From the NCBI GenBank assembly GCA_964612745.1, contig CAZTCH010000002.1, positions 1,009-65,008 of the forward strand: 64,000 bases of DNA, written 5' to 3'. Each line of letters begins with the position of its first letter. Positions within the stretch are counted from its first letter, which is position 1. A program made the position numbers and the translations under genes. Shown here one piece after another: positions 6,341 to 28,276 of the stretch. This stretch comes from an uncultured Candidatus Saccharibacteria bacterium. Its GTDB lineage: Bacteria > Patescibacteriota > Doudnabacteria > UBA920. The notes beneath the pieces were generated by a model that saw only the letters and a program-made list of their open reading frames with translations, ran no database searches and had not been told where the DNA came from.

Positions 6341-6375
6341 ATGTATATAGCAACGCTAAACCAAACTAATTTAAA

Positions 6376-6801: not shown

Positions 6802-6845
6802 ACAATACCTTTTTTAATTCCTACTTATACTATAGCAAACCAAAA

Positions 6846-7241
6846 CTACTCTTTGTCATTCCACGGAAAGCCCCACTGCCACTTTGGCTTTTCCCCTTTT
6901 TTGTAACAAATGCGTAAGAGCGTCACCGTAAGTAACACTGCCGGAAGCACGAACAGAAACATGACTTCGCGCCCCGAAGAGCGTTCATCTATCGTGAGCG
7001 CGCACAGCACCAGCGCCGCAACATATACCCCCACCGTAAGCCAACCCTGCCACGTCACAGGGGTCCACCCCCACCCAAACCCTTTGCGTTTGAACCACAA
7101 ATGGTTTGGATTGTTTCGGACATAGTCCATATACTGCCTAAATAGTTTCATATGTTTTACTGCCAAGTGTGTTGGCAAGATTATATATATAGTATATTCC
7201 CCCACGTACCGACCGTCTAGATGACTACGCCCATATCCCAA
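6846..7241 (-). CDS. Hypothetical membrane protein
   Basis: Hydrophobic segments; uncertain start. Confidence 0.3.
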   Translation of the reverse strand: MGYGRSHLDGRYVGEYTIYIILPTHLAVKHMKLFRQYMDYVRNNPNHLWFKRKGFGWGWTPVTWQGWLTVGVYVAALVLCALTIDERSSGREVMFLFVLPAVLLTVTLLRICYKKGEKPKWQWGFPWNDKE

Positions 7242-7660: not shown

Positions 7661-8098
7661 CTAAAAAGTTTGTGCTGTGCGGATAAATCCATACGACTGG
7701 GCACCAAAGGCATGCCCACGCATGATATCTCTTAAACCTCGGTATTCCTCCGGATAACCAAGGTTAAAAGAAAATCTATTCGCCCACCAATAGTAACGAA
7801 ACCCTTCCACTTCAAGAAACTCCTGCCATCTCTCGGGGACAAACTCCACCAGCTTACAGTTATACCCCCTGCCGGCTGATGTGAGACATACGCGCATCGG
7901 CCTCTTGTCTATTCTTACTACTTTTACCCAAGGAGCGGTTAGATGCATGCCCGCTCGCACGTCTACGCTCGTCTCGCCAGTCAGATAATTCCTCTGTATA
8001 GCAAGATGGTACGCTTCTGTGTAATGAAAGCAGAAAAGATAACAACAAACCGATAGAGTCAATATGCCGTCGGCGATAGCGACTTTACTGATAGTCAC
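7661..8098 (-). CDS. Membrane-anchored hypothetical protein, paralog A (GTG start overlapping the upstream stop as GTGA)
   Basis: Shares RPM.VC....NCKLVEF.P....EQFL motif with the 8095..8727 protein. Confidence 0.45.
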   Translation of the reverse strand: MTISKVAIADGILTLSVCCYLFCFHYTEAYHLAIQRNYLTGETSVDVRAGMHLTAPWVKVVRIDKRPMRVCLTSAGRGYNCKLVEFVPERWQEFLEVEGFRYYWWANRFSFNLGYPEEYRGLRDIMRGHAFGAQSYGFIRTAQTF

Positions 8099-8727
8099 TT
8101 TACCTCCGTTGTTGGCACAGCACTAGGAGTAGGGACCACTCCTACCCCACTAGCCTCGTCCGGTTTAAGCTCGCGTTTAATCGTGAGGAACGGATAGGAC
8201 TTTCCGCTGCCGTCATACGCATAGCTTTTCAGAATGTCCGGCAGCCGGCTTTCGTCGCCGCTATAATCGTCGCGACCATGCCATGCCAGAAATTGCTCAA
8301 GACCAGCAGGGTTAAACTCGACAAGCTTGCAGTTAAGCACGCGAGAGTTTGCGTTATTGCAAACCTGCATCGGACGCAAATCAATCTTGTGTACTTTGAC
8401 CAGAAAGGGTGGTGTAATAACATACCCCGTCCTGCCAATGCGTTCAATTTTGCCCGACCTAGCATCGTATTTGTACGCCAACTCATAGTTGTCAACAAAA
8501 TCAACGCAAAGAGCGTAAAACGCGCCAACGCCGATAAGCAAGGTAACAAACAGAACCGCAACAAGTATCAGAGCCTTAACCCAAAGGCTAAACTCTGTGA
8601 ACCAGCTTGTTATGTGTTCAGCGACTTCCTCAACGGATCCTTGTTCCATGACTTCCTCCTGGATTGATTGTAAAAGTGGTAAACTACGTATTTTTTGCAA
8701 CAACGCCTGTTGCAAACTCGAAACCAA
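8095..8727 (-). CDS. Membrane-anchored hypothetical protein, paralog B (possible SPFH-like fold)
   Basis: TM helix then a conserved block shared with paralog A. Confidence 0.45.
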   Translation of the reverse strand: MVSSLQQALLQKIRSLPLLQSIQEEVMEQGSVEEVAEHITSWFTEFSLWVKALILVAVLFVTLLIGVGAFYALCVDFVDNYELAYKYDARSGKIERIGRTGYVITPPFLVKVHKIDLRPMQVCNNANSRVLNCKLVEFNPAGLEQFLAWHGRDDYSGDESRLPDILKSYAYDGSGKSYPFLTIKRELKPDEASGVGVVPTPSAVPTTEVK

Positions 8728-8878
8728 TCAACTGCGTGCTAACACCAAAAATGGTATAGTGCGCATGTGAAAAGCCTTGAAGAATGCATTATACAATAAA
8801 ATTGTACTATTGTCCATAGTAAACTTAGGTAATAATGACCATTTTTTGCAATAAAATATAGGTAGAGTAAGGGACATT

Positions 8879-8920
8879 AAAAGCCAACACTTTTCACGGC
8901 CGTGAAAAGTGTTGGCTTTT
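8879..8920. repeat. Hairpin family copy H1 aaaagccAACACTTttcacggccgtgaaAAGTGTTggctttt
   Basis: Perfect 16-bp stem, conserved loop TTCACGGCCGTGAA; immediately 5' of R1. Confidence 0.7.
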
Positions 8921-8926
8921 AAATTA

Positions 8927-8948
8927 TTACGAAGGTGACCATGGTAAC
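8927..8948. repeat. Array repeat R1 ttacgaaggtgaccatggtaac
   Basis: One of 11 copies of the 22-26 bp conserved repeat. Confidence 0.8.
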
Positions 8949-9014
8949 TACAATATCGCTACAAGACAACCCCTAAGGCTCACCGTATGAAGATTTTGAC
9001 CACGTACAAAGCAA

Positions 9015-9521
9015 TTACGCCTGCGCTGGTTTATTCAATTCTTGTTCAGCTTTTTCTGCAAGGTCTAAAAAGTCCCCCACGTCTGCCACACTCATTTCTC
9101 GGGGAACGTAATCTTTTATACAAAAGACCCCTACAGGCATATTACTCGCGCGGTCATACAAAGATTTACCTGCGTAAAATCGTATATGCGGCTCCCCTAC
9201 CACCATTGGATTGTCTGCAAAACACGGGTCGGCCAGTGTGTCGTTAATAATTAAAATAACTTGCGACAACAACGCATGTCCACAAAAAGAAATATCCCGC
9301 GGTCCCCCAGTGGACTGCAGCCCCTGCACGGACTTAAACCACTCTCGGGCTTTATCCACAAGTGCAATAGTAGAGATTGGCACACCGAATCTTTTGACTG
9401 CTTCTCTCGTAAGACAGTCGAACCTTTCTTCTGCTGCAGTGTCTAACAAATGTAAACCCTGCACTGCACAAACGCGCTCTACATCGTTCTCTGGAATTGG
9501 TGCTTTTTGCATATGTAACAA
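9015..9521 (-). CDS. GAF domain protein
   Basis: GAF-like pattern (DTAAEERF...FCGHALL). Confidence 0.55.
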   Translation of the reverse strand: MLHMQKAPIPENDVERVCAVQGLHLLDTAAEERFDCLTREAVKRFGVPISTIALVDKAREWFKSVQGLQSTGGPRDISFCGHALLSQVILIINDTLADPCFADNPMVVGEPHIRFYAGKSLYDRASNMPVGVFCIKDYVPREMSVADVGDFLDLAEKAEQELNKPAQA

Positions 9522-9685
9522 AAATGAATGAATTATATAAACATAAAAAAGTACCGCACAATCGTACGTGTACTTTTAAACCATTTTATATGTATAAATA
9601 AAAATGCCCATAGAAATTCTAGGCCTGCTTCACCAGGTCAGAGCTTCTACGAGCTTCGTTACTTACAGTATAGCAAATAAAAATG

Positions 9686-10192
9686 CTACACCACAATTTC
9701 TATCCCCACAAAAAACATAATTGCACCTTTTGTATCTAAAATTGGTGACACCAAAAGTTCTACGTCGTACAGCTCTCCACTTTTCTTTTTGTTCGTGATA
9801 TGTAATTTCACAGATGTCTTTTTTTCAGTCATCTGCTTCCACATGTCTTTGTAAAATGCTTCTGGCATATGACCGCCCCACAACTCAGAAGGGCGCTTCC
9901 CCACCGCCTCATGCATTTGGTAGCCAGTAACTTTTTCTACCGCAGCGTTTATAAATAAAATTACTCCGTGTGCGTTGGTAATAATTACTTGCTCAATAGT
10001 ACTTTCTAATATCCGGTTCAAAGTACCACACCGCACGCACTTAATCTCCGGCCCAGTAGTGCCTTGGTCTTTCGCCAACATCTTACCGCACTTCATGCAC
10101 CGAAATTCTTTCGAATCGTGCATGAGCACCTGCGGCAAAAAACTTGCACTGCTCGTAGCATCTACATTTGTATTGATATTTTTTTCTGTCAC
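9686..10192 (-). CDS. PAS domain protein with N-terminal zinc ribbon
   Basis: CMKCG....CVRCG followed by PAS-like core. Confidence 0.5.
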   Translation of the reverse strand: MTEKNINTNVDATSSASFLPQVLMHDSKEFRCMKCGKMLAKDQGTTGPEIKCVRCGTLNRILESTIEQVIITNAHGVILFINAAVEKVTGYQMHEAVGKRPSELWGGHMPEAFYKDMWKQMTEKKTSVKLHITNKKKSGELYDVELLVSPILDTKGAIMFFVGIEIVV

Positions 10193-10524
10193 ACAGTTGT
10201 GTTAAAGGCTGCCCTCTTACCGCTTGCGCACACTTTGCATTGTCGTGCTTTCTTTGCTTGCAAATTTTACCTTTGTTCTACTGGTAGTATAGTGCTACTT
10301 TTTTTGCATTACAAGCCCGTACACAAATATAGACGCACTCCACAGAGGGCAAATAAACCTTTCGCTCAAAAGTCAACACTTTTCGTTACTACGCGCGCCT
10401 GGTAACGAAAACAGTACAAAGATACATTTGCATTGGTTATTAAACCTGCAAACTGAGCATCTTCACTTCTCTTTAATGTGAAATTGTCATACTTCCTTCG
10501 CTATTAACAGTACACTATACACAT

Positions 10525-10986
10525 ATGCCACACTCATTTGCCGTGCTGCGCAAAGACCATCGCGCGGTCGAAGAGCTGTTCAAACAACTAGAAGACACAA
10601 CTGAACGAGCGGAAAAAGGTCGGACTGAACTGTTCGCGGAACTGAAAGAACTTTTGGACCAGCACACCGAAATAGAAGAAACCATTCTCTACCCTGCACT
10701 AGAGAAAGTAGAGCTCACCCACGACGCCACTTTAGAGGCAGAAGAAGAGCACAACGTGGCAAAAACATTATTAGCAGAACTGGAAGCAAGCGACCCCACC
10801 ACGGAGCACTGGACCGCCAAGCTAACCGTGCTCAGAGAAAGTATTGAGCACCATGTAGAAGAAGAGGAGAATGAATTGTTCCCACAAGCAGAGAAAGCAC
10901 TAGACCAAGACACGCTTGCTGAGCTGGAAGAGCAGCTCAATAAGGAGAAAGAAAACTCGGATAGCATTTTAGAAGAAATCTTGTAG
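10525..10986 (+). CDS. Hemerythrin-like metal-binding domain protein
   Basis: H..E...H....E spacing typical of hemerythrin HHE; only + strand gene in the array. Confidence 0.55.
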   Translation: MPHSFAVLRKDHRAVEELFKQLEDTTERAEKGRTELFAELKELLDQHTEIEETILYPALEKVELTHDATLEAEEEHNVAKTLLAELEASDPTTEHWTAKLTVLRESIEHHVEEEENELFPQAEKALDQDTLAELEEQLNKEKENSDSILEEIL

Positions 10987-10998
10987 ATAGACGAAAAA

Positions 10999-11035
10999 AC
11001 ACCCTGACATTCCCTGAATGCTAGGGTGTTTTGTA
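10999..11035 (+). terminator. Terminator hairpin caccctgacattccctgaatgctagggtg then a T-run
   Basis: Direct reading. Confidence 0.5.
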
Positions 11036-11065
11036 TTCTGGATGAATCCTAGCTTTATTTCTAGC

Positions 11066-11689
11066 CTACACACCTAGCAATATTCGCAGGTTTTCAAAAT
11101 GATGCAGAAACGAGTACAGAGCAAAATACGCATAGGCAAACCCAGGAAGCATGAACAGCAGGGCAACCAGCACTAGTCCGCCGGACCTGTTTACACTTGG
11201 CTTGTTAACAGGGTGGAAAGCTGCAATAAGCAACGCAGACCCCAAAAAGTGAGCGTATGCAGCAACGGAACCAAAAAATCCAATCAAAATAAAAGCTTGA
11301 TACCATTCGGGTAGACCCCCAACCGCATACACCAAAATAGCCAAAGCCAAATCCAGAACAAAAAAATACGCTAACTCTTTTATCAGTTTTTCTGCTGAGT
11401 TTCGATACTCCACATCTACTGCAGCCATTTTTGTGGTATCAAATGTTACCTTGTGTCTTTTTGCAACAATTCTATGTATGATCTCGTACTCAAATGCGCT
11501 CAGACCAAAAAGTAAAATAGTTGTTAGAAAAACGTTTGGCAAAATACTGTTGAGGTACGGTGTAATAGTCGCAAAGAAAAACAAACCTGTGCAATAGGCC
11601 AACACCCTCACAGACACAACCAAGTACCCACTCAAAACCGCCACGGCTTTACTCTTTTCAAAATCCGAACTCACAATCTCCTGCTCCAT
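11066..11689 (-). CDS. Hypothetical polytopic membrane protein
   Basis: Multiple hydrophobic helices. Confidence 0.4.
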   Translation of the reverse strand: MEQEIVSSDFEKSKAVAVLSGYLVVSVRVLAYCTGLFFFATITPYLNSILPNVFLTTILLFGLSAFEYEIIHRIVAKRHKVTFDTTKMAAVDVEYRNSAEKLIKELAYFFVLDLALAILVYAVGGLPEWYQAFILIGFFGSVAAYAHFLGSALLIAAFHPVNKPSVNRSGGLVLVALLFMLPGFAYAYFALYSFLHHFENLRILLGV

Positions 11690-11743
11690 AAATAAAATAT
11701 CTTAAAACTTCTGCTGACTATTTAAGTATACCCCCATAGCTAC

Positions 11744-11765
11744 TTACGAAGATGGCCATGGTAAC
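11744..11765. repeat. Array repeat R2 ttacgaagatggccatggtaac (2 mismatches), 3 bp after the NUDIX stop
   Basis: Sequence match. Confidence 0.7.
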
Positions 11766-11770
11766 ATCTG

Positions 11771-12268
11771 TTATCTAAAATCGTTTGGATTAAAATAATC
11801 TTTAAGACCATTTGTTTGCTCGCAAAGTTCAATAGAGTTAAGCTCCTCTTTTGAAAAAAATCCGACTTCTTCACACTCGTCTGTAGGGGTAAACTCCAAA
11901 CTTTCTATCTCAATCTGATAAGCCAATACGAGGGAGTAATACCAATCCATGCTCCTACTATTTTCAAATCGCCATGTCCAAGCATACACTGGTTTTTCAG
12001 AAATCTTTTTTATCTGCATACCCGTCTCCTCCTCAATCTCACGCTTAAGTCCATTTTTTATATCTTCGCCAAAATCTAACCCTCCTCCTGGAAGCTCCCA
12101 CTCCCCACCTAGCTTTTGAGATTCTTTGAGTAATAGAATTTTACCTTCTTTAACAAAAATACCTTTTACAGAAACTCTGTAAAAGCTGTCGGGGAAATCT
12201 TTAGATTTATGAAGTGATGTCATATGTTTAATACTCGTATTATTAGCAATAATAGCACACAAACGCAA
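11771..12268 (-). CDS. NUDIX hydrolase
   Basis: Nudix box GGGLDFGEDIKNGLKREIEEETGM. Confidence 0.7.
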   Translation of the reverse strand: MRLCAIIANNTSIKHMTSLHKSKDFPDSFYRVSVKGIFVKEGKILLLKESQKLGGEWELPGGGLDFGEDIKNGLKREIEEETGMQIKKISEKPVYAWTWRFENSRSMDWYYSLVLAYQIEIESLEFTPTDECEEVGFFSKEELNSIELCEQTNGLKDYFNPNDFR

Positions 12269-12462
12269 TTTAGAATTTTGTGGTAATACCTACGTCGCCC
12301 TTCAACGAACCACTGTATAGCTTAGTGATCGTCGTCATGACGGCAGCCCTCTTTGGCTGTACTCATACTCAACCCAGCCTGGTCAGAATATCAATTTGGA
12401 TACTTAAAATTCTTTATCCATCTCTACAATTTTTAGCTCATCAGCAGAGAATAATCTTTTCG

Positions 12463-12484
12463 TTACGAAGGTGACCATGGTTGC
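12463..12484. repeat. Array repeat R3 ttacgaaggtgaccatggttgc (3' end degenerate)
   Basis: Sequence match. Confidence 0.65.
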
Positions 12485-12588
12485 GGTGACAAAAAGTTTC
12501 TTAGTTTTTTGTCGCAATAAAAAATGCCCGAAGTCTTTTTAAGAACTCCGGGCCAACATCGTGTTCGGGTATTATCTGGATAGCAATT

Positions 12589-13182
12589 CTATAACTCTAT
12601 TGCTTTCCAAAAACCACCTTCAATTGGAAGCTTGCCAGTCCTACACCAGCTGGTAAGCACATCACTATAGTACGCCTCCCAAGCCTGCATTTGAACTTGC
12701 GCCCACATATCTGAATCCTCCACAAGCGAGTTGGGGCAACCTGCTTTATTGTGAACATTTAGATACAAATACCTACTAGTACGAGAGCGAATATACCAGT
12801 AGATACATTTTTGGGGCTGGCTTGGCAAGGAACATCCTTTAAGGGTGTAAGCCTTAGTTTTGCCACAGTCGATGATTCCTCGTAGATTCGCAACCCCTTT
12901 CCGAACCAAAGCTTGATAGCCGTGTACAATGTCTAAGTCGTTCTGAGAGAGACCACGCGACAGCTCCGGCGATTGTCCATAAAAAGGGAGAAACATTGCA
13001 AAATTCAGGATGCCGGATTTTTGCCCGGATCGAACAATGTCACAGAGTTCCCCGCTCATGTACGGCACGGAAGTGCAAGTGGCACCCACAAAGACTGGCT
13101 TTCCTAGCGTTAGGAGCCTAGTAAGAGTAAGCACCATGCCATCGGGGGAAACCACTTTCTCTTTACGAAATTTCATATCCAC
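12589..13182 (-). CDS. Hypothetical protein (cassette cargo)
   Basis: 197-aa ORF between R3 and R4. Confidence 0.35.
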   Translation of the reverse strand: MDMKFRKEKVVSPDGMVLTLTRLLTLGKPVFVGATCTSVPYMSGELCDIVRSGQKSGILNFAMFLPFYGQSPELSRGLSQNDLDIVHGYQALVRKGVANLRGIIDCGKTKAYTLKGCSLPSQPQKCIYWYIRSRTSRYLYLNVHNKAGCPNSLVEDSDMWAQVQMQAWEAYYSDVLTSWCRTGKLPIEGGFWKAIEL

Positions 13183-13380
13183 CTCCTCGAAGTTTGAATT
13201 CTAATATTAAATCATATTTTCTAACTTTAGTCAAGTCTTTGACGCTCAATACGACTTCTAATACACTCGGATTACAAAAAATACGATCTGCAATCCTATT
13301 TTTGCAAAAATCGAAATATGATCCGGGAATTTTTAGGGTGCCATAAAGAAAATACGCACGTAACCGATTTAGTGCCTCGC

Positions 13381-13402
13381 TTACGAAGATGACCATGGTA
13401 AC
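13381..13402. repeat. Array repeat R4 ttacgaagatgaccatggtaac
   Basis: Sequence match; the 93-aa ORF 13163..13444 reads through it and is probably spurious. Confidence 0.75.
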
Positions 13403-13453
13403 GGGTTCCATACTTACTAAGGCGGGCACATGACAGAAAAACACCTAACACTA

Positions 13454-13493
13454 AAAGCCAACACTTTTCACGGCCGGGAAAAGTATTGGCTTG
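13454..13493. repeat. Hairpin family copy H2 (imperfect) aaaagccaacacttttcacggccgggaaaagtattggctt
   Basis: Same loop and stem ends as H1. Confidence 0.6.
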
Positions 13494-13550
13494 AAAGTTG
13501 GGTTAGTTGCAAGCAAATCCTCCCCCACTCCCACAAATTTACCAAATTTA

Positions 13551-13592
13551 AAAAGCCACTAGTTTTCACGGCCGTGAAAACTAGTGGCTTTT
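13551..13592. repeat. Hairpin family copy H3 aaaagccACTAGTTttcacggccgtgaaAACTAGTggctttt
   Basis: Stem differs from H1 by compensatory changes on both arms. Confidence 0.7.
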
Positions 13593-13616
13593 GGCGCTAG
13601 GCACGCATGGTAGAGA

Positions 13617-14006
13617 CTAGGACATTTTTGTGCACAGTTCAACCAAAAAGCCGTTTATGTCCGCAACATAGGCAATTGTTTGCCCCCACGGTTTTTGCTC
13701 TGGCTCTTTCACAACCTTTGCACCTGCTTGAGTTGCTTTGCTAAATGCAGCCGCAAGGTCTTCTACCACAAATGCAATTTCTGCTGGAGGTGGTAACATG
13801 CCTGCATCACTCTTTGCAATCGCCACGCCGTTGTACTCCGCTATGCTGTATGATGCAAACGCAAGCGTGGTGCCACCAGTTTCTAACTCGGCATAGTCTT
13901 TTTCTGGAGTAATAAATTTTTGGGCAAACCCAAACGCGTCAACATAAAAAGCAATCGTCTTTTCGACATCTGCTACGTAAAGAATTGTGTATCCGTATGT
14001 AATCAT
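13617..14006 (-). CDS. VOC/glyoxalase-bleomycin resistance family protein
   Basis: Two beta-alpha-beta-beta-beta modules. Confidence 0.6.
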   Translation of the reverse strand: MITYGYTILYVADVEKTIAFYVDAFGFAQKFITPEKDYAELETGGTTLAFASYSIAEYNGVAIAKSDAGMLPPPAEIAFVVEDLAAAFSKATQAGAKVVKEPEQKPWGQTIAYVADINGFLVELCTKMS

Positions 14007-14046
14007 ATTGGTATTTTACCACAACGCACACAGCTCTACATCTTGG

Positions 14047-14068
14047 TTACGAAGGTGATCATTGTAAC
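14047..14068. repeat. Array repeat R5 ttacgaaggtgatcattgtaac (preceded by TTGG)
   Basis: Sequence match; about 5 bp after the AlkD-like stop. Confidence 0.7.
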
Positions 14069-14073
14069 CATGT

Positions 14074-14844
14074 CTAGCGCTGGGCGTGTTTAAGAATCCA
14101 CGTAGTATGCTCGTTTTTGGAACGCGACCAGCGCGCGACAACTTTTTGCGCTTCTTTGGGATTCACTTTCAGCCAGTCGCGCAAATGATTTGCCACAGAC
14201 TTTTTTACGAACTTCACACTGTCTTCTTTGAGTAATTCGAGTATTTCCAAAACTGGTTTCGGGTTTTCGCTCCACACGTCCAGCTTGGGTGCCCAAGGTA
14301 GTTTTGGACGCAAGCCTTCGCTGGCAAGCCGCCGCAAATGAAAATTTTTACTCTTTGCCCACCGCGCACACACCGCAAGCGTTTGCACTGGGTAGGCACG
14401 AGCAAAAGGACGGATAGCGTACTCCCCCGTGTTCCGCTTAGTTATTTCTTCTAGAACTTGCATGGAAACCCGAAAGTGCGCCACACCGTATTTTTCTACA
14501 AACTTACCCACGGGCATGAGCCAGTAGTAGTTAGTGAACATGCCGGTCTCGTGTGGATTTTCCGGACCTAAAATCTGCATGAGCACTGCCAGTGCTGCAG
14601 GATATGACTCTGGCAAATACCGCTGCAAGTTGTCTGCAATAATTTCTACCCGCGCTGTATATGTTTTGCCTACCACTTCTTTTTTCACACTCGCACAAAA
14701 CGCTTTTTTCTGAAACTCGGGATACACCACAACCAACTTGTCTGCCAACAATAGTGCCAGACTCTCCCCAAACGCATCGGTAATAGAATATTTCCCCGTT
14801 TCCGGATTTTTAAAACTATGCTTCTGCACCTCTTGTTTCGCCAT
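14074..14844 (-). CDS. DNA alkylation repair enzyme (AlkD/AlkC-like HEAT-repeat glycosylase family)
   Basis: HEAT-like repeat composition (C-terminal VKFVKKSVANHLRDWLK). Confidence 0.5.
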   Translation of the reverse strand: MAKQEVQKHSFKNPETGKYSITDAFGESLALLLADKLVVVYPEFQKKAFCASVKKEVVGKTYTARVEIIADNLQRYLPESYPAALAVLMQILGPENPHETGMFTNYYWLMPVGKFVEKYGVAHFRVSMQVLEEITKRNTGEYAIRPFARAYPVQTLAVCARWAKSKNFHLRRLASEGLRPKLPWAPKLDVWSENPKPVLEILELLKEDSVKFVKKSVANHLRDWLKVNPKEAQKVVARWSRSKNEHTTWILKHAQR

Positions 14845-14930
14845 ACTACTCCCCTGCTTTACTTACTTCTACTGTACCACACCCTTCAACCCTAATGAAG
14901 GCGGGCTTATATCAGAAAAGCACACAAATC

Positions 14931-14970
14931 AAAAGCCAACACTTTTCACGGCCGTGAAAAGTGTTGGCTT
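14931..14970. repeat. Hairpin family copy H4 aaaagccaacacttttcacggccgtgaaaagtgttggctt, followed by a degenerate R-like gaagaaggtgaaaggtaagcc
   Basis: Identical to the H1 core. Confidence 0.7.
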
Positions 14971-15026
14971 GAAGAAGGTGAAAGGTAAGCCAAAAACGAG
15001 CATTCGCACTCCAAAATTACCTGCAT

Positions 15027-15070
15027 GAAAAAGCCATCAGTATTCACGGCCGTGAATACTGATGGCTTTT
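15027..15070. repeat. Hairpin family copy H5 aaaaagccATCAGTAttcacggccgtgaaTACTGATggctttt
   Basis: Third distinct covarying stem variant. Confidence 0.7.
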
Positions 15071-15556
15071 AGTTTTATGATTGGGATGGGTGTAGATAGA
15101 GCGTGCACGGTAACGGGCTAGGCGCGCAATCCAGGGTTTTTTGCTGCGAGTTGGAGTACTTTTTTTTAGTCCCACAAGATTCACGTCTTCCAGCTTTTTA
15201 AACCGTATGCAGCTTTTACCCACACTAACCTTGCCTAGTTCTGTTGCATGCTTTTCGGCAATGTACTGACCTGCCTCCAAAGCACACACATACACGCTTA
15301 CGTACTGCTTCTGGTTGGCCAGCGCAACAACGGGCCACTGCACTGTCTCTTTTTTGTGATTCAAGTATGGGAAACTACCATACCCCAGCATGTTAGACGC
15401 CATGTGAGGCTTTAGTTTTGGCACAGCCTTTTGGATAAATTCGTGCAAAAACAAAATAAGCTCTTTCCGCTCTGCCGGAACCGCCGCAAGATACTCTTTA
15501 ACCGATTTCGCTTCTACGGGTTTAAACATGTTCATATGTACTGGGTTAGCCAACAA
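15044..15556 (-). CDS. DUF1801 (YdhG-like) domain protein
   Basis: N-terminal composition; C-terminus overlaps hairpin H5. Confidence 0.4.
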   Translation of the reverse strand: MLANPVHMNMFKPVEAKSVKEYLAAVPAERKELILFLHEFIQKAVPKLKPHMASNMLGYGSFPYLNHKKETVQWPVVALANQKQYVSVYVCALEAGQYIAEKHATELGKVSVGKSCIRFKKLEDVNLVGLKKSTPTRSKKPWIARLARYRARSIYTHPNHKTKSHQYSRP

Positions 15557-15616
15557 TGCGTACAGTATATCCTAAAAATTACGTTCGAAGTATTGCCAGC
15601 ATGCCCCTACCTTTGG

Positions 15617-15638
15617 TTACGAAGGTGACCATGGTAAC
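15617..15638. repeat. Array repeat R6 ttacgaaggtgaccatggtaac (perfect, preceded by TTGG)
   Basis: Sequence match. Confidence 0.8.
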
Positions 15639-15643
15639 AGATT

Positions 15644-16204
15644 CTAGCTTTGCAGGTGGGACACGTCGTTCCAAAACATAATGCGCCACTTCCCTTTTTC
15701 TTCGTTAAACATACATTTTGAAATGCCACAATTATCCATGACGAGAGATTCATCAAAACTTTGGAGCAAGCTTTCAGTCAGCCCATCACCCAACATACAG
15801 TACGCAACCAAAGCTTTAAAAAATGCAGCATGACCTACAAGAACATTGTGTTTTGTTGAAAGACTTTCCAGAAAGGTCTTTGTCTCTATCAAGCGTGCAT
15901 GCAACTCCGAGTAACCTTCTGCGTAGCCATAGGCGCCATCGGTAAACTTACCGCGACGCTCCTTTAGACATACTTTTACTTGGGACCGCACACCAGTTAC
16001 TTTTTCTATCTCCGCCGCGGTCTGAGCCGCTCTGGTAATTCCTGAATGGTAGATTGAATCAATAGCAGCATGCCCAAAACGCTTCGCAACCAAAGTTGCC
16101 TCTGAAGCACCTTTTTCAGTCAGCGGATCTTCCGCCCCTGCAAAATTAGTATCTACATTCGACATGCATTCACCATGCCGAATGAAATAATAGTATTTTC
16201 TCAT
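15644..16204 (-). CDS. Histidine phosphatase (phosphoglycerate-mutase-like) family protein
   Basis: IRHGE catalytic RHG motif. Confidence 0.6.
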   Translation of the reverse strand: MRKYYYFIRHGECMSNVDTNFAGAEDPLTEKGASEATLVAKRFGHAAIDSIYHSGITRAAQTAAEIEKVTGVRSQVKVCLKERRGKFTDGAYGYAEGYSELHARLIETKTFLESLSTKHNVLVGHAAFFKALVAYCMLGDGLTESLLQSFDESLVMDNCGISKCMFNEEKGKWRIMFWNDVSHLQS

Positions 16205-16225
16205 TTCTTGCCTTGTTCTTATTGG

Positions 16226-16247
16226 TTACGAAGGTGACCATGGTAAC
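16226..16247. repeat. Array repeat R7 ttacgaaggtgaccatggtaac (perfect)
   Basis: Sequence match. Confidence 0.8.
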
Positions 16248-16251
16248 AATA

Positions 16252-17049
16252 TTATAGACTAACCAACTTATGCTTTACTTTGCTGCCCAACCACTTTTGA
16301 CTTAGCTTTTCATAATGCTCTGTTAAGTCAGTCACCCTCAGATCAATTTTCTTGCGTCTACTTAGTACCTTTTCAATCTCCGGATGTTTTTGCAAGTATG
16401 ATTTTAATTTAGCGGGCACAATGTCATCTTGGGATATTATCTGTATGCCCTTGCCAACAACGCTGCGAATCCCTCTCTTCAATATCGGATAATGAGTACA
16501 ACCTAATACTATCGCCTCAACTTTTTGCTTTAAAAGCGGTTTCAGATATTCACGAAGGATTGGCCCTGCCCACTGCAACCCATCGTTCTCGATAAGTGGA
16601 ACTAGTAAGGGCGCTGCTTGCTGATACACCTTCACATTCGGCTTTATTTTTTTAAATTCTTCCACAATAGCATTCGAGCTAACTGTGGCTTGCGTTGCCA
16701 ATACGCCAATACGACTACTACCTATCTGAACAGCTGTTTCAACCGTGGGAACAATTACACCTAACACCCTTCTATCCGGATAATACTTTGGTAAATATTC
16801 ACGTTGTATCCTACGTAATGCTCTTGTTGAAGCAGTGTTACAAGCCAAGATAATTAACTTGCAATCATTCTGAAACAAATACTCAACAGCTTCCAATGTA
16901 AACTGATATATTGTTTCTTGTGACCGACCACCATAAGGTACTCGCTTAGTGTCTCCTAAGTAAAGATAATCATACTGAGGTAGCTGCTTCGAAATACTTT
17001 TTAGTAAAAGCAAACCGCCTACACCACTGTCAAATATGCCTATTTTCAT
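16252..17049 (-). CDS. murI: Glutamate racemase
   Basis: IFDSGVGGL motif; the ORF-track N-terminus MVTFVTKNK is translation of repeat R8, so the true start is at MKIGIFDSG. Confidence 0.7.
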   Translation of the reverse strand: MKIGIFDSGVGGLLLLKSISKQLPQYDYLYLGDTKRVPYGGRSQETIYQFTLEAVEYLFQNDCKLIILACNTASTRALRRIQREYLPKYYPDRRVLGVIVPTVETAVQIGSSRIGVLATQATVSSNAIVEEFKKIKPNVKVYQQAAPLLVPLIENDGLQWAGPILREYLKPLLKQKVEAIVLGCTHYPILKRGIRSVVGKGIQIISQDDIVPAKLKSYLQKHPEIEKVLSRRKKIDLRVTDLTEHYEKLSQKWLGSKVKHKLVSL

Positions 17050-17074
17050 TCCGGTATCATACCATAAAATTAAC

Positions 17075-17506
17075 TTATTTTTGGTTACGAAGGTGACCAT
17101 GATAACGGGGGTTGAACTGTTGTGGAAAGCGCTTGGTTGATATGCCTAACTTGTTCAAAATCAGCCCCGATACCTTAAAACAAAGAGGATACAGCAACAC
17201 GACAATTGCGATGTTCACATATTCATTCGCAAAAAGCTCTGGCCCTGCTAAAAGAGCCAGCAGCGCTAAGCATCCGAAATACAAAGTATGATATAGCAAT
17301 CTACCAAGCATACCCCAACGCCCCACCCGGGCTTCGAAAAATGCCACAGTATACAGCAGCAGTGTGAAGACCAAAATATACACCCAATACTGACTGACGA
17401 GCCGCACAACAATCCCCCACACTATTCTGTACCCCTCACGCAATCCAGTGTCCATTAAAGATGGTAAAGCCTGAGCCACCTGCGCTACTTCATTTGTTTG
17501 TTGCAT
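17075..17506 (-). CDS. Hypothetical membrane protein (C-terminus reads through R8)
   Basis: Hydrophobic helices. Confidence 0.35.
   Translation of the reverse strand: MQQTNEVAQVAQALPSLMDTGLREGYRIVWGIVVRLVSQYWVYILVFTLLLYTVAFFEARVGRWGMLGRLLYHTLYFGCLALLALLAGPELFANEYVNIAIVVLLYPLCFKVSGLILNKLGISTKRFPQQFNPRYHGHLRNQK
17085..17106. repeat. Array repeat R8 ttacgaaggtgaccatgataac
   Basis: Sequence match. Confidence 0.75.
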
Positions 17507-17517
17507 ATCCTATTTGG

Positions 17518-17539
17518 TTACGAAGGTCACCATGGTAAT
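17518..17539. repeat. Array repeat R9 ttacgaaggtcaccatggtaat
   Basis: Sequence match. Confidence 0.7.
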
Positions 17540-17563
17540 CAAAACTCAGAATGAAGCACTTAG

Positions 17564-18145
17564 CTAACCACTAGAAACAGCCTCGCCACTAACAATCTTT
17601 TCTAAAACCTTACGCGCTTTCTCTGAATGCCCCAAAGCAAGCTTACGAATTACTCCTAAATTTTCCGGATTGTTCATAGGAAGCGTACTTGTTGCAGAAA
17701 ATAAAAAATTTAAACTTGCTACCACCTCAGCAAGAGTTTTAACTATGTCCTCATTCTGAGTACTTAATGCCAATGGCGTACTTAAACCATTTAAAGCCTG
17801 TGAAATGTTTGAAATATGCTGGTTAAATCGGTGCGACGTGTCTTTGGTCACCCACCCCGGAGAGTATTCTTCCATTGTACTATATATTAACTTTGCATCA
17901 AGGTTACTCCCATCGTGCAAACTAATTTGCCCAAGATAGTCTTGCATGGCAACATTAATTAACGTCAAAAGACTAACGGCAAGATCGTGCACTTTTTCGT
18001 TCCTTAAGGTTTCAATATCAATCTTCTTTTGCTTCCTATATAACCAAACACCGGAGTATGCAATTATTAAACCAGCAAATAAAGTTCCCACAAATGTATT
18101 ATCTGCAGTCTGTGCTAGAGCATTAGAAAATGTATTTATATCCAT
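17564..18145 (-). CDS. Hypothetical protein with N-terminal TM helix
   Basis: ORF only. Confidence 0.35.
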   Translation of the reverse strand: MDINTFSNALAQTADNTFVGTLFAGLIIAYSGVWLYRKQKKIDIETLRNEKVHDLAVSLLTLINVAMQDYLGQISLHDGSNLDAKLIYSTMEEYSPGWVTKDTSHRFNQHISNISQALNGLSTPLALSTQNEDIVKTLAEVVASLNFLFSATSTLPMNNPENLGVIRKLALGHSEKARKVLEKIVSGEAVSSG

Positions 18146-18190
18146 AAGCGACTAATATACAATCAAGTAACAGTACCACTCACGTGCATC

Positions 18191-19126
18191 CTACCTTTGG
18201 TTATGAATGTCACCATGGTAACGGACATGGGAGCTTATATTTTTGGGGAGGAGTTTCTGTGCTAGTAATTCAAAAGTAATGCCTGCGGCCTTGGCAGCTT
18301 TGGGTAGTAAGCTTTCCGAAGTGAGTCCTACGCCACAAGGGGTGTTTATCTCCAAAATATAGAGCACACCATCTTGCAATATAAAATCAGCCCGAGAATA
18401 ACTACCCAGCTGTAAATCTTTGTGAATTTTAAGAGAAATAGCCTGCGCTTTCTTTTGAACCCCCACATCTACAGAAGGAGCGAATGGAATTTCTTTAGCC
18501 ATGCCTGAATACTTGCTTTTGTAATCAAACCACTTTCCATTTGGCGGTACAATCTCAACCACGGGGAGTGCTTTTCCATTTAACACTCCAACTGTTATTT
18601 CAACACCAATAAGCTGCTTCTCCGCATACACACGACAGGGAAGTTGGAGGATTTTCTTCACCAAAAAGCCAGAGAGGTCTTTTAGCTTGTGTAATATTAC
18701 TACTTCATGAGACGAACCCCCATAAGTAGCCTTAAGAACGCAGGGAAAACCAAACTTAATTATATCTTGCTTTGTTTTAACAATTTTCCATGGAGCAGTT
18801 ACAATACTATTTCTATCACAATATTGCTTAAAAAGAATCTTATCAAAAGCAATCTTTGCTCCTTTGGGCTCTGAACCAACATAAGGTATTTTAGAAGACT
18901 TTAGGAATCTGTAGAGAGTACCATCCTCCCCTTCTCTGCCGTGCATTACCGGGAAGGCTACATCACACACTTTTATGGCAGAACGTAACTCAGAATAACC
19001 TCGTTTAAAGTCAAACACCTGCACTGCGTGGCCATTTGATATCAATGCCTTTTTAACCATACTTGCTGAAAGCAAGGAAATTTTTCGCTCTGATGAAGAT
19101 CCGCCAGTAATAATCAAAATATTCAT
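18191..19126 (-). CDS. ddl: D-alanine--D-alanine ligase-like ATP-grasp enzyme
   Basis: N-terminal MNILIITGGSSSERKISLLSA and ATP-grasp-like C-terminal half. Confidence 0.6.
   Translation of the reverse strand: MNILIITGGSSSERKISLLSASMVKKALISNGHAVQVFDFKRGYSELRSAIKVCDVAFPVMHGREGEDGTLYRFLKSSKIPYVGSEPKGAKIAFDKILFKQYCDRNSIVTAPWKIVKTKQDIIKFGFPCVLKATYGGSSHEVVILHKLKDLSGFLVKKILQLPCRVYAEKQLIGVEITVGVLNGKALPVVEIVPPNGKWFDYKSKYSGMAKEIPFAPSVDVGVQKKAQAISLKIHKDLQLGSYSRADFILQDGVLYILEINTPCGVGLTSESLLPKAAKAAGITFELLAQKLLPKNISSHVRYHGDIHNQR
18201..18222. repeat. Array repeat R10 ttatgaatgtcaccatggtaac
   Basis: Sequence match. Confidence 0.65.
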
Positions 19127-19202
19127 ACAGTAACCATACCAAAAAATCGCCAGCCAAGCGATTCTATACAAAAAAACTACCAAATCTCAGTAATTTGATT
19201 GG

Positions 19203-19224
19203 TTACGAAGGTGACCATCGTAAC
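19203..19224. repeat. Array repeat R11 ttacgaaggtgaccatcgtaac, 30 bp from the tRNA-Gln 3' end
   Basis: Sequence match. Confidence 0.75.
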
Positions 19225-19254: not shown

Positions 19255-19328
19255 TGGCTGGGGTACTAGGATTCGAACCTAGGATGACGGGACCAGAACC
19301 CGTTGCCTTACCGCTTGGCTATACCCCA
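19255..19328 (-). tRNA. tRNA-Gln (anticodon CUG), CCA encoded
   Basis: Minus-strand cloverleaf: UGGGGUA acceptor with U1-A72, GGUUCGAAUCC T-arm, UUCUGGU anticodon loop, G73-CCA. Close to the canonical bacterial tRNA-Gln. Confidence 0.85.
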
Positions 19329-19354: not shown

Positions 19355-19511
19355 TGCCTTATCCCGACTCCGAGTCGGGACCATACCCACTGCACAAAAA
19401 CATGTGCGGGAACCCCAGCCAAAAAAATACGAATGTCTATATTTTGTTATGAAAGAAGTGCTGCATGTCCGTTGCCTTATCCCGACTCGGAGTCGGGACT
19501 GTACCCCATCC
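19355..19511. repeat. Two copies of G(T)TGCCTTATCCCGACTC(C/G)GAGTCGGGAC..TACCC hairpin repeat adjacent to the tRNA
   Basis: Units at 19355-19390 and 19471-19511, each with perfect hairpin cccgactc.gagtcggg. Confidence 0.55.
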
Positions 19512-19617: not shown

Positions 19618-20067
19618 ATGCAAAACGAACCTCAGACAGCCCAAAACTACCAAAACCACAGAAAATTTGTAGTTGCCTTCCACGCGGTGGTGTCCACCCT
19701 GCTTGTACTTGGCCTTATTTTCTCCATTGTCGCTCTTGTAAAAGCTTTTGGAGACGCAGGTATTCCTTGGACAGAACTTGCCCTTGTCGCCCTTGCGTTG
19801 GGTAGCAGCATTCTTATGTGGTACGCTCGTGCCTTCCCTGTTGGCGTACAAGACCGCGTCATTCGCCTAGAAGAGTCGTTACGCGCCCAAACACTAACCG
19901 GCAAACCACTCGACCCTGCTCTGACCATGTCGCAAGTAATTGCACTGCGCTTTGCATCTGACGAAGAATACGCAGCTCTTGTTACCCGCGCAGTTGCAGA
20001 AAAGCTAACCAACGACCAAATAAAGCAAGCTGTTAAGAACTGGCGCGCCGACAACGCCCGTATTTAA
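19618..20067 (+). CDS. Hypothetical membrane protein
   Basis: Two TM helices. Confidence 0.4.
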   Translation: MQNEPQTAQNYQNHRKFVVAFHAVVSTLLVLGLIFSIVALVKAFGDAGIPWTELALVALALGSSILMWYARAFPVGVQDRVIRLEESLRAQTLTGKPLDPALTMSQVIALRFASDEEYAALVTRAVAEKLTNDQIKQAVKNWRADNARI

Positions 20068-22134: not shown

Positions 22135-22410
22135 AAGAACAGATGGGTGCCATCAAGAGAAACTCCAAATCCCAAGCACCAAATATCAAATAAATTACAA
22201 TCCGCCAGCTGGCGGACAAAATTCAAATCAAAACTGTAAACTGAAATGCAATTTAGTTATGAGTTTATAGTTGCAGTTTTGCGTTCCTGTCGTTAGATGG
22301 GCACCATCTGACACCATGCTCGTAGTTATGGTTTGAGGGCGCATCGACACAAATAAGTATAAAACTTACCTGTCAGATGGTGCCCATCTAACTCTACCGT
22401 TTTTCTTGCG
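22135..22410. mobile_element. MITE-like repeat copy A: AC-rich word arms plus long hairpin cagatgggcaccatctgaca...tgtcagatggtgcccatct
   Basis: Shares arm words (ccaaatcccaagcaccaaatatcaaataaatt; agttgcagttttgcgtt) with copies at 36.8, 38.1 and 48.0 kb. Confidence 0.5.
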
Positions 22411-25834: not shown

Positions 25835-25865
25835 ACCACTGAAAAGAAGCAGTACAGAAATAACA

Positions 25866-25988
25866 AACTACAAAAATCAAAACTCAAACAAGTTCCAATA
25901 CACAATGTCCAAAATAAGAAAGTGTATTTGTTTGGGATTTTGAATATTGTAATTTATTTGTTATTTCGTGCTTGTGATTTGGAATTTC
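25866..25988. repeat. ~125-bp repeat, inverted copy of 55343-55468
   Basis: Reverse complement matches 55343-55468 with only a few mismatches by eye. Confidence 0.7.
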
Positions 25989-26028: not shown

Positions 26029-27777
26029 CTACTTGGTCCTTGTCGGTGGCACATTTAAGTACGACAGGATAAACTCTGCCAGCTGCCCCCACGCTGGAGC
26101 TGCGGTACTTTCTGCGAACTGCACCGTGCGCGGGTGGTTTACCCGAACGAGCATCACAAATTTCGGGTCTTCTACCGGGGCGTATCCCACAAATGTTCCA
26201 ATGTTATTGTCTGGGTCATATCCCCCACCTTCTTTTTTCGCAACTTGCGCTGTTCCAGTTTTTCCCGCGACATAATACCCTTTTACCCCTGCTCGCTTGC
26301 CATGTCCGCGTTCAACCACGCCTACCAACATAGCAGACACTGCAGCAGCAGTTTGCGGCTTCACAATCTGCGCAGATTCAGGCAAAACAGTTGGCACAGT
26401 CTCCCCTTCTGGGGTGATTTGCGATGCCACCACATGTGGCGTTGGCATTTTCCCGCCGTTTGCCAGTGCAGCATACGCCCGCACCATTTGCAGCGGGGTT
26501 ACTGAAATACCCTGCCCGAAACTAGCAGTATGGTAGTTCACCGTAATATTCCCTTTTAGGTTAGACAAACTCCCCGCAACTTCTGGCAAATCCACACCAG
26601 TCAGTTCGCCAAAACCAAATTTTTTCGTATACTTTAGAAAATCTGCATTACCAACTTTATTTTTCACAAAAATCATCCCTGTGTTCAAAGACTCTTCCAA
26701 GACTTGGGACATAGTCTGCACACCGTGCGCTTTGTTGTCTGAGTTGCGAATAGTGTACCCATCCACTTCCACTGACCCCGTGTCGGTAAATGTCGTATCT
26801 GGCCCAACTACCCCTTCGTCCACACCCGCAGCCATGGTAACCGCTTTGAACACTGACCCTGGTTCGTAGCCCGCCGTAGTGCACTGACTATTGAACACAG
26901 ACTGGTCAGTTACTTTGTTGTACTGGTTTGGGTCGTAGCTCGGGTTACTCGCCATGGCTAAAATAGCCCCTGTCTTTGGGTCCATAACAATCGCACAGCC
27001 GCTGTCTGCTAAGTTGTCGGTTACTGCTTTTGCCAACACCCGCTCAGCTTGCATTTGTATACTGCGGTCAATGGTGAGGAGTAATTGGTTGCCATTGCGC
27101 GCTGGAGCAAACTCGGTGCCAGAACCAAACAACCAACGTCGGGCAATCGAAGTATCTGCCCGCGCCGCCCCAGACACCCCAGCTAAAGTAGTATCATATT
27201 CCCGTTCCAACCCGTAGACCCCCACTTTTTGTGACCCCGAATCTTCACGGTACCCCAAAAACCCGACAATATGGCTCAAGAACTCATGCTCAGGATAGAA
27301 CCGAACTACTTCTGTGTCGAACCGCACCCCCGTCAGTTGTAGCGCTTCCACCGCTGCACGCTCAGCCACGGTAATATTTCGTTTGAGTGGTACGTAGACT
27401 TTGTCTTGGTTGTTACGAATGCGTCCTTCGACATCCGCCTCCACGAGCCCTAAGGCTTGTGCCAATACCCGCGCAGCCACCGCTGGTTGTGCAATCTCTT
27501 TCGGTACGACATATACCAGTGGCGCTTCGACATTGGTTGCCACTGGCACGGCTTCTGGACTTAACTGATCAAATATTTTAATATCGCCCCGCGCTGGAGC
27601 AAGCTTCGCAAAAAAGGCGTGCTGGTCTTCCGCAACACCACGGTAGTACGAACTAGAAGACACCTGCAGCACCGACAAACGAAACACAAGCATTGCGAAC
27701 AGAACAAAAAAGAGCCCGCCCAATAGACGCACCCTCCCCACATAGAGACTTGGTTTTACTTCGTGCTTTCCAGACAT
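26029..27777 (-). CDS. ftsI: Penicillin-binding protein transpeptidase (FtsI/PBP2 class)
   Basis: SVFK (SxxK), SDN-like and KTG motifs; N-terminal TM; dcw context. Confidence 0.75.
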   Translation of the reverse strand: MSGKHEVKPSLYVGRVRLLGGLFFVLFAMLVFRLSVLQVSSSSYYRGVAEDQHAFFAKLAPARGDIKIFDQLSPEAVPVATNVEAPLVYVVPKEIAQPAVAARVLAQALGLVEADVEGRIRNNQDKVYVPLKRNITVAERAAVEALQLTGVRFDTEVVRFYPEHEFLSHIVGFLGYREDSGSQKVGVYGLEREYDTTLAGVSGAARADTSIARRWLFGSGTEFAPARNGNQLLLTIDRSIQMQAERVLAKAVTDNLADSGCAIVMDPKTGAILAMASNPSYDPNQYNKVTDQSVFNSQCTTAGYEPGSVFKAVTMAAGVDEGVVGPDTTFTDTGSVEVDGYTIRNSDNKAHGVQTMSQVLEESLNTGMIFVKNKVGNADFLKYTKKFGFGELTGVDLPEVAGSLSNLKGNITVNYHTASFGQGISVTPLQMVRAYAALANGGKMPTPHVVASQITPEGETVPTVLPESAQIVKPQTAAAVSAMLVGVVERGHGKRAGVKGYYVAGKTGTAQVAKKEGGGYDPDNNIGTFVGYAPVEDPKFVMLVRVNHPRTVQFAESTAAPAWGQLAEFILSYLNVPPTRTK

Positions 27778-27781
27778 ACTT

Positions 27782-28234
27782 TTAGCGCATACTTACTGTT
27801 TCTACTTTGGCACTCTTTATAAACTCTGGTGTTCCCACCGGTACAAACCCTTCTGCACCAGCTGCAATCCCGCGCATACGCACGCCTGCAGTAACCTCTG
27901 CAATTTGCACTTGCAACTGACGCTGCGCAGACTTTTGCTTTTCTAGCTCATTTTGCTGTTGTCGCAACGAAAACGCAGACCCTTCTAACCCATTCACCGA
28001 AAACAAATACAACCCAAACAGCACCACGTTGGAAATAGCGAGTGCTACCACAAACATGCGAGCGTAGAGTGGGCCGAATCTGTTGACTGTCGGAGCAACT
28101 GCTTTGGCGCTTGTGCGCACCGGAACTACCACAGAACGAGAAGTACGAGTGGTGCTGGCAAGGTCTTTTGTAATTTCAAAGGAAGGTAGTTGGACACCGA
28201 CGGTACTGGAACTAATTGTTGGGGCTAGTGACAT
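27782..28234 (-). CDS. Cell division protein FtsL-like (TM plus coiled coil)
   Basis: Position between rsmH and ftsI. Confidence 0.4.
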   Translation of the reverse strand: MSLAPTISSSTVGVQLPSFEITKDLASTTRTSRSVVVPVRTSAKAVAPTVNRFGPLYARMFVVALAISNVVLFGLYLFSVNGLEGSAFSLRQQQNELEKQKSAQRQLQVQIAEVTAGVRMRGIAAGAEGFVPVGTPEFIKSAKVETVSMR

Positions 28235-28276
28235 ACGTTTGAAGGTTTTGATTTTACGAGTTGCTTTTGAACTGCT

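Follow-up and report, generated by a model that had tools for sequence, protein, structure and literature searches.

Putative housekeeping murI and ddl genes in a site-punctuated, variable gene array beside tRNA-Gln of a candidate phyla radiation bacterium

Why should the genes for two peptidoglycan-precursor enzymes, glutamate racemase (murI) and D-alanine--D-alanine ligase (ddl), lie among repeat-bounded, cassette-like units? The question is raised by positions 16,252 to 19,126 of a 64-kb stretch of contig CAZTCH010000002.1 from an uncultured Candidatus Saccharibacteria bacterium; the whole 64-kb stretch is referred to here as the window. The original prediction had offered accessory paralogs, capture of essential functions by a fixed array, or a ligase with a different product. 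We consider it about an even call that these are the working housekeeping murI and ddl of a candidate phyla radiation (CPR) bacterium, residing in a hypervariable array of co-directional modules that is punctuated by a short site and starts at tRNA-Gln(CTG). The gene content of the window (mraZ-mraW-ftsI, mreB, recJ, dnaX, dinB, pgk, and glycolysis and pentose-phosphate genes) is that of a bacterial chromosome from a CPR (Saccharibacteria-like) host, and the named best matches of both Ddl and MurI are CPR/Patescibacteria metagenome-assembled genomes (MAGs). The head of the array carries the following features, in window coordinates:

19255..19328, minus strand: tRNA-Gln(CTG), head of the array (ARAGORN; Rfam RF00005, 63.9 bits)
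18191..19126, minus strand: ddl, D-alanine--D-alanine ligase (Pfam, NCBIfam, PDB alignment)
17564..18145, minus strand: unk193, a single-gene module with, by eye, a putative N-terminal transmembrane helix (GC 0.378)
17075..17506, minus strand: unk143, a module, membrane-protein-like by eye (open reading frame [ORF] call)
16252..17049, minus strand: murI, glutamate racemase (TIGR00067; 1zuw alignment)
15644..16204, minus strand: histidine-phosphatase module (Pfam His_Phos_1)

Read in gene sense, the array begins with tRNA-Gln(CTG), site, ddl, site, unk193, site, unk143, site, murI and site; it continues with the histidine phosphatase, a site, a DUF1801 gene together with a DNA-alkylation-repair gene, a site, a glyoxalase gene, a site, unk197 and a site; and its tail consists of a NUDIX gene, a site, a membrane-protein gene, more genes and, at 8923, the final site. 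The order ddl, unk193, unk143, murI, histidine phosphatase, DUF1801 recurred over 4.2 kb in an independent Logan assembly (L001; SRR12762304). The module unk193 forms a singleton cluster with no Pfam, NCBIfam, PHROG or PADLOC match, and PHROG and PADLOC scans of the uncharacterised modules yielded nothing usable.

The punctuating element is a 24- to 26-nt site, TTGGTTACGAAGGTGACCATGGTAAC, that brackets both murI (copies 17081-17106 and 16222-16247) and ddl (19199-19224 and 18197-18222). The claims that each gene is flanked by the repeat, and that only two small uncharacterised units (unk193 and unk143, with a copy between them) separate the two, were therefore borne out. Eleven copies lie within 8923-19224, in a single orientation throughout. 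Scanning with GGTTACGAAGGTGACCATGGTAAC, allowing up to 3 mismatches, returned 10 same-strand matches versus 0.00 expected (100 shuffles), and the site was absent from the other ~54 kb of the window. The copies, all located by repeat search except the degenerate one, are:

19199..19224, plus strand: in the gap between tRNA-Gln and ddl, TTGGTTACGAAGGTGACCATCGTAAC
18197..18222, plus strand: overlapping the 3' end of the ddl ORF
17514..17539, plus strand: between unk193 and unk143
17081..17106, plus strand: upstream of murI
16222..16247, plus strand: 4 nt past the murI stop codon
15613..15638, plus strand: site copy
14043..14068, plus strand: past the DNA-alkylation-repair gene
13377..13402, plus strand: site copy
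12459..12484, plus strand: site copy
11740..11765, plus strand: degenerate eleventh copy, ACTTACGAAGATGGCCATGGTAAC, 5 nt past the NUDIX stop codon
8923..8948, plus strand: last, tRNA-distal copy

Only ~26 nt of the repeat are conserved (TTGGTTAC...GTAAC), the flanks being unrelated between copies. Its core is a 23-bp double-stranded near-palindrome around one base, GTTAC-GAA-GGT-G-ACC-ATG-GTAAC, in which 9 of 11 half-site positions are symmetric and the inner triplets set the direction. When ten copies were folded as single strands, no common structure emerged and z-scores were mostly ~0, i.e., little better than shuffles; with no fold shared among the ten, the site is not an attC, a REP (repetitive extragenic palindromic) hairpin or a terminator. 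Most copies are close to the preceding gene (usually 4-30 nt past its stop codon), being 4-5 nt past the stop codon in four cases, overlapping the ORF end in two, 24-30 nt past the gene in two (unk193 and tRNA-Gln) and 66-214 nt past it in the other three. The unk143 and ddl ORFs both read into the site that follows them, and in an identical frame. Distances from site to next start codon vary from 7 to 195 nt; given this spread and the lack of a consistent pattern in consensus scans, a phage-type or sigma-70 promoter role was ruled out. A tRNA-derived att repeat was likewise rejected, the site being unlike tRNA-Gln by eye.

To judge by sequence, both enzymes are canonical and intact. MurI scored 212.9 bits against TIGR00067 (cutoff 146.65) over model positions 1-250 of 251, aligned end to end with Bacillus subtilis RacE (1zuw), and carries both cysteine motifs of the active site (ACNTA and GCTHYP) and the N-terminal DSGVGG motif; of the columns conserved in 95% or more of ~110 CPR homologues, it keeps 63 of 63. 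The gene starts MKIGIFDSGVGG, whereas the ORF as called mechanically opens at 17100, on an ATG within the repeat. Ddl exceeded the Pfam cutoffs for both of its domains (PF01820, Dala_Dala_lig_N, 66.5 bits versus 34.6; PF07478, Dala_Dala_lig_C, 97.1 versus 24). It aligned over its whole length to solved structures, including that of Acinetobacter baumannii 5d8d, through the motifs SSERK, GGSSHE, SKY, YSRAD, EINT and SESL. The Glu/Ser/Tyr triad, the omega-loop Lys-Tyr, and the Arg, Asp, Glu, Asn and Ser-Leu residues are all retained, with roles that we presume from Escherichia coli DdlB numbering, and Ddl shows no deviation in the columns with at least 95% conservation across 109 CPR Ddl homologues (70 of 70 kept).

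Could the Ddl-like protein nevertheless be of VanA/VanC type, or another divergent ATP-grasp ligase, with a different D-amino-acid dipeptide or depsipeptide as its product? Three features could be read in this way: NCBIfam subfamily scores that narrowly miss their curated cutoffs (PRK01372, 223.2 versus 243; TIGR01205, 201 versus 245.65), a two-residue insertion before the Gly-x-Thr loop (TNTPGGVGLT), and a 16-residue C-terminal tail. We tentatively attribute the low scores to CPR divergence, and the insertion is shared by all nine close homologues inspected. The tail is the sole oddity of this Ddl: homologues end at ~295 aa, homology ends near 18248, and the final ~16 codons are read-through of the next site copy. 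In addition, models for Van-type ligases scored only 60-120 bits versus cutoffs of 495-775 (VanA, 66.5 versus 775; D_ala_D_lac, 86.7 versus 550; D_ala_D_ser, 120 versus 520; VanG, 106.7 versus 495). With the omega-loop Lys-Tyr and all catalytic residues kept, the proposed comparison of specificity residues with those of Ddl and Van ligases gave a D-Ala-D-Ala-type rather than a VanA-like set, and a different product is very improbable. Both proteins thus resemble canonical CPR MurI (TIGR00067) and Ddl (PF01820/PF07478), being full-length with conserved residues kept and with nearest CPR orthologues at 70-76%; they differ only in setting, namely, in the flanking repeats, the 16-codon extension of ddl through the repeat, and a GC content below that of host core genes.

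The setting was assessed in the sister genome, a MAG labelled Candidatus Saccharibacteria (CAZZBG01), whose contig L021 holds the corresponding locus. The flanks of L021 match window 3239-7241 and the tRNA-Gln side, with 86-96% nucleotide identity in most blocks (90-96% over most of the flanks) and 80% over the outermost 816 nt. Between these flanks, however, L021 carries 3 kb versus 12 kb in the window, and amino acid identity is lower for the shared modules (57-84%) than for the flank genes (92-97%). The order in L021 is site, histidine phosphatase (84%), site, membrane protein mem208 (57%), two sites, a murI stump, unk143 (83%), site, a metallo-beta-lactamase-fold gene, a partial tRNA-Gln copy, a GIY-YIG gene and tRNA-Gln. 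The two genomes therefore differ by whole modules, and the histidine-phosphatase homology runs exactly site to site (window 15612-16247 and L021 3718-4364, 86% by blastn). The unk143 block (16998-17535) extends from inside murI to the next site and so is site-bounded on one side. Deletion alone is insufficient to relate the two arrays, because their shared modules differ in order. The array behaves as modules and is not perfectly syntenic in the closest relative, so the perfect synteny that would have counted against the original prediction was not observed. The murI stump keeps the leader and 52 nt from the start of the gene, and its fusion point lies 9 nt from a site; murI was once present in L021 and was lost by ordinary deletion. 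Having no conserved context in any relative examined, murI looks like a true module of the island. From the L021 array locus, ddl is absent.

For ddl, a different history was indicated by more distant relatives. Contig L062, whose Ddl is 73% identical, carries tRNA-Gln(CTG) and then ddl in the same orientation, without any sites. It shares its outer landmarks with the window: one side has a SET-domain gene, and on the other side an AHSA1-like gene lies ~10 kb downstream. Apart from tRNA-Gln-ddl, the genes between these landmarks differ entirely. On three further contigs (L002, L004 and L005), 0.7-3.4 kb separate tRNA-Gln from ddl. Relative to the syntenic clade, whose members are 76-90% identical among themselves, the window Ddl (70-75%) is a simple outgroup. 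Since the tRNA-Gln-to-ddl arrangement and macro-synteny exist in site-free L062, ddl is an old resident and not captured cargo, and the suggestion that the array had captured an essential function fails for this gene. The island is old: ddl has been conserved at its head, and the repeats were superimposed on it in a lineage-specific manner.

Several observations were made around the tRNA itself. A 34-nt repeat, TGCCTTATCCCGACTCCGAGTCGGGAC..., lies just past tRNA-Gln (window 19355-19388 and 19473-19506), and the motif also occurs in L021 (6566-6650 and 7004-7037) and in L062 (~9830-9860). In the sister genome it follows a 56-nt partial tRNA-Gln copy beside the GIY-YIG gene, and in L062 a partial tRNA-Gln 3' copy stands ahead of ddl. 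These partial copies and 34-nt motifs look like scars of repeated integration at tRNA-Gln. A DUF6526 gene (19618-20067) adjoins the tRNA; its nearest non-CPR relatives are Bacteroidota/Chitinophagaceae at ~50%, with only three closer matches. Horizontal acquisition of this gene is probable, which makes the far side of the tRNA variable as well; a homologue search with this patchily distributed gene was uninformative. In L002, a 27-nt direct repeat, TCGAACTTTGTCCCACAGTCTCAGCCA (9144-9170 and 9930-9956), brackets an ART-PolyVal gene immediately upstream of ddl and may represent another type of boundary for single-gene modules.

How widely the site occurs was examined by scanning 185,579 species genomes with the site pattern. 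Real matches occurred in a single MAG, CAZZBG01, on eight contigs. A Joint Genome Institute metagenome scan added one real 1.3-kb contig (L028), in which two copies flank a DUF1697 gene; the other 25 metagenome matches were single chance matches, and a viral contig collection gave chance matches only. Besides L028, a small array was found in L052, where the variant TACAAAGGTGACCAATGTA lies on both sides of ddl and a good copy follows a DUF1697 gene. L052 is the exception among contigs carrying the closest Ddl or MurI homologues, as no site adjoins the gene in L002, L004, L023, L024, L055, L056, L057 or L062; a diverged variant, GTTGC-AAA-GATGACC-ATT-GCAAC, does occur in L002. Within CAZZBG01, symmetric left-left and right-right hybrid sites exist, and four abutting doublets were found, those in L009 and L011 being clean inverted pairs; paired copies share one base. 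Elsewhere in that genome (L007:5935-7640), an Xer-like tyrosine recombinase gene adjoins an IS200-like Y1_Tnp gene, which is bracketed by its own hairpins, GGGTTACCC (AAAGGGTTACCCTTT...AAAGGGTAACCCTTT). These hairpins occur in no other locus examined, nor in the window.

By what means might such an array turn over? Site-specific recombination fits the uniform orientation of the array, the site-to-site homology, the hybrid sites and the tight packing on ORF ends. On the best-supported reading, a dimeric protein encoded outside the window would bind the site as double-stranded DNA, and modules would be gained, lost and reordered at or through the sites. The agent would be a palindrome-binding recombinase whose gene lies in another part of the genome; without such an enzyme, exchange between the 26-bp repeats would take its place. 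In either case, ddl and murI would be carried along as island residents and not as special-purpose paralogues. Alternatively, the 26-bp repeats may simply recombine with one another, or the site may act in a purely regulatory or structural way. A bolder form of the idea, which we regard as distinctly doubtful, is a previously undescribed integron-like system of a CPR clade, in which a recombinase encoded elsewhere in the genome would use the 23-bp double-stranded core site to swap single genes, housekeeping cell-wall genes among them, or to cut them out and put them back, the main array being anchored at tRNA-Gln and the scattered copies serving as spare landing sites.

Several results weigh against the view that housekeeping genes simply reside in a site-bounded array. 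In CAZZBG01, the site is not confined to arrays. Single copies and abutting inverted pairs adjoin housekeeping loci, namely, tgt/pnp, an ABC-F gene, RNase P RNA, the rpsL region and a ribosomal-protein operon, a dispersal that a pure cassette model does not predict. The window, moreover, lacks a recombinase gene anywhere in its 64 kb: Pfam searches of all ORFs of at least 270 aa and most of ~140-230 aa revealed no tyrosine, serine, DDE or HUH recombinase, and tblastn with an Xer-like protein gave no match. Inverted pairs and the lack of a nearby recombinase do not fit site-specific recombination, and the loss of murI from L021 was an illegitimate deletion rather than site-to-site excision. That stump also implies that murI was dispensable at this locus in the sister genome. 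The GC contents of ddl (0.404), murI (0.397), unk193 and NUDIX (0.361) are 5-10 points under that of every core gene of the window (0.45-0.51 in 25 core genes), whereas in other lineages the GC of ddl and murI agrees with their surroundings; horizontal replacement fits this contrast better than simple residence. Both proteins have thousands of homologues, the best 120 listed declining smoothly from ~75% to ~55% identity. Although the sister proteins are included in the 5.8-billion-protein set searched, the closest among the matches listed are at most 76% (Ddl) and 74% (MurI) identical, which, together with the stump, leaves room for horizontal replacement or redundancy. Finally, the array comparison draws on one close relative and two short contigs.

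The same observations can be assembled into a rival account, in which the array murI and ddl would be accessory extra copies that arrived by horizontal transfer in mobile single-gene cassettes, while the housekeeping copies would lie elsewhere in the genome. Low GC, site boundaries around both genes, the dispensable murI of the sister genome and the missing closer matches all favor it, as does the origin of the nearest MurI homologues (74% and 70%) from contigs of 0.30-0.36 GC. We nonetheless judge this account unlikely, albeit deserving of weight, because ddl occupies the ancestral tRNA-Gln(CTG)-proximal position found in site-free L062, its product is a plain outgroup to the syntenic clade, and CPR genomes usually have one copy each of murI and ddl. 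Consistently, tblastn revealed no second ddl or murI in the window, and its division and cell-wall (dcw) cluster is without ddl. More specifically, this cluster (26029-29874) consists of mraZ, mraW, a small ORF and ftsI only; as no mur genes or ddl follow ftsI, ddl and murI are unlinked from it. In another rival account, murI and ddl would simply be housekeeping genes in a region rich in the repeat, and the cassette look would be incidental. The repeat would then be a cis element to which a dimeric regulator binds, or else an intergenic element of 3'-end or REP-like type. Half-sites of 11 bp round a single central base are typical of homodimeric DNA binders; the dispersed single and inverted-pair copies beside housekeeping genes, the variants with compensating arm changes (GTTGC...GCAAC) in L002 and L052, and the lack of a nearby recombinase point the same way. 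Against this stand the confinement of 11 of 11 window copies to 10 kb with none in the other 54 kb, the variable start-codon distances with no fixed promoter geometry, the lack of a consistent hairpin (hence neither REP-like nor terminator-like), a different hairpin around the IS200-like gene of the sister genome, and homology breakpoints that coincide with sites between genomes. We consider this account improbable.

A canonical chromosomal integron, or a cluster of attC sites lacking integron-integrase (CALIN), with attC cassettes handled by IntI, would account for co-oriented, mostly single-gene modules with a repeat close after or overlapping each ORF end. It would equally account for miscellaneous functions (NUDIX, glyoxalase, DUF1801, phosphatase), for content that varies between relatives and, in the CALIN form, for the absence of an integrase nearby. 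However, the repeat unit here is a sequence-conserved, double-stranded near-palindrome (23-26 bp overall, 24-26 bp per unit) without R''-L''/L'-R' architecture or a reproducible single-stranded fold, whereas attC is a structure-conserved hairpin of 55-140 nt. Some intergenic spacers, such as the 47 nt between murI and the histidine phosphatase, fall under the minimum of attC sites, which are roughly 55 nt and up. With no IntI or other tyrosine recombinase in the window, a tRNA anchor, housekeeping cell-wall genes among the modules, and a site that is also dispersed and found as abutting inverted pairs, this explanation has hardly any probability.

Other known systems share parts of this architecture. 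Hypervariable islands anchored at tRNA genes are exemplified by the Prochlorococcus islands and tycheposons (Hackl et al., bioRxiv 10.1101/2020.12.28.424599). As in such islands, the variable region here starts at a tRNA, partial tRNA copies (L021 and L062) suggest repeated integration, and the outer anchors are conserved while the inner gene content turns over fully. Tycheposons, by contrast, are reportedly multi-gene elements with their own integrase in tRNA-anchored islands; the array repeat is not tRNA-derived, and its modules are single genes, not multi-gene integrase-bearing elements. REP/REPIN systems with their REP-associated tyrosine transposases (RAYTs) likewise involve a short palindromic intergenic repeat, single or in inverted doublets near gene ends, and the sister genome does have an IS200-like Y1_Tnp gene. 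Intergenic dispersal with inverted doublets is seen in CAZZBG01 (8 contigs, 4 doublets), whereas 11 of 11 window copies lie in one array, in one direction, and form no stable hairpin. A REP/RAYT system was ruled out, as the sister Y1_Tnp gene is flanked by a different, non-dispersed hairpin. The Xer/dif site, and dif-module arrays such as those of integrative mobile elements exploiting Xer (IMEX), resemble the locus in their ~26-bp site with inverted arms and a short centre, their site-module-site layout and a recombinase encoded elsewhere. A dif site was ruled out, since there are 11 copies rather than one and the cumulative GC skew of the window is monotonic, with no switch at the locus; we also take the site to be unlike known dif consensus sequences. 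Whereas pdif modules are bounded by inverted sites, the sites flanking the array modules are direct repeats. A literature search on integrons, REPs or variable islands in CPR bacteria found nothing describing such an array.

The value of the locus lies in the setting and not in the enzymes: a reduced CPR genome keeps normally indispensable cell-wall genes in a region of gene-by-gene turnover between sister species, where a conserved palindromic site marks module boundaries. If the site proves to serve recombination, the array would represent a compact type of cassette system distinct from the integron, and ultra-small symbionts would have a way to exchange or replace genes of the core itself; should it be no more than a repeat between genes, what is left is another tRNA-anchored variable island. 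The murI/ddl finding itself is modest, and the site-punctuated island is the part worth following.

Further repeats were noted in and around the array. A second, array-confined family consists of perfect terminator-like hairpins, AAAAGCCAACACTTTTCACGGCCGTGAAAAGTGTTGGCTTTT, mostly in doublets ~98 nt apart, and such a doublet is also present at the array edge of L021. A-rich intergenic repeats of ~30-49 nt (e.g., AAATTCCAAATCTCAAGCACCAAATAACAAATAAATTCCAAA), some with an internal period of ~14 nt, lie outside the array. Their positions are as follows:

8862-8920, 13436-13494, 13534-13592, 14914-14972 and 15012-15070, and L021:3578-3720: hairpin repeat
22160-22247, 25858-25920, 36745-36846, 38029-38176, 47913-48150 and 55344-55392: A-rich repeats

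Just outside the last site, tandem paralogues with 34% identity (7661-8098 and 8095-8727) are missing from the sister contig. Farther away, transketolase is split (locus 50296-53937) into an N-terminal gene (53074-53937) and a C-terminal gene (50296-51285), between which lies a gene for a 587-aa DUF2339 membrane protein (51287-53050).

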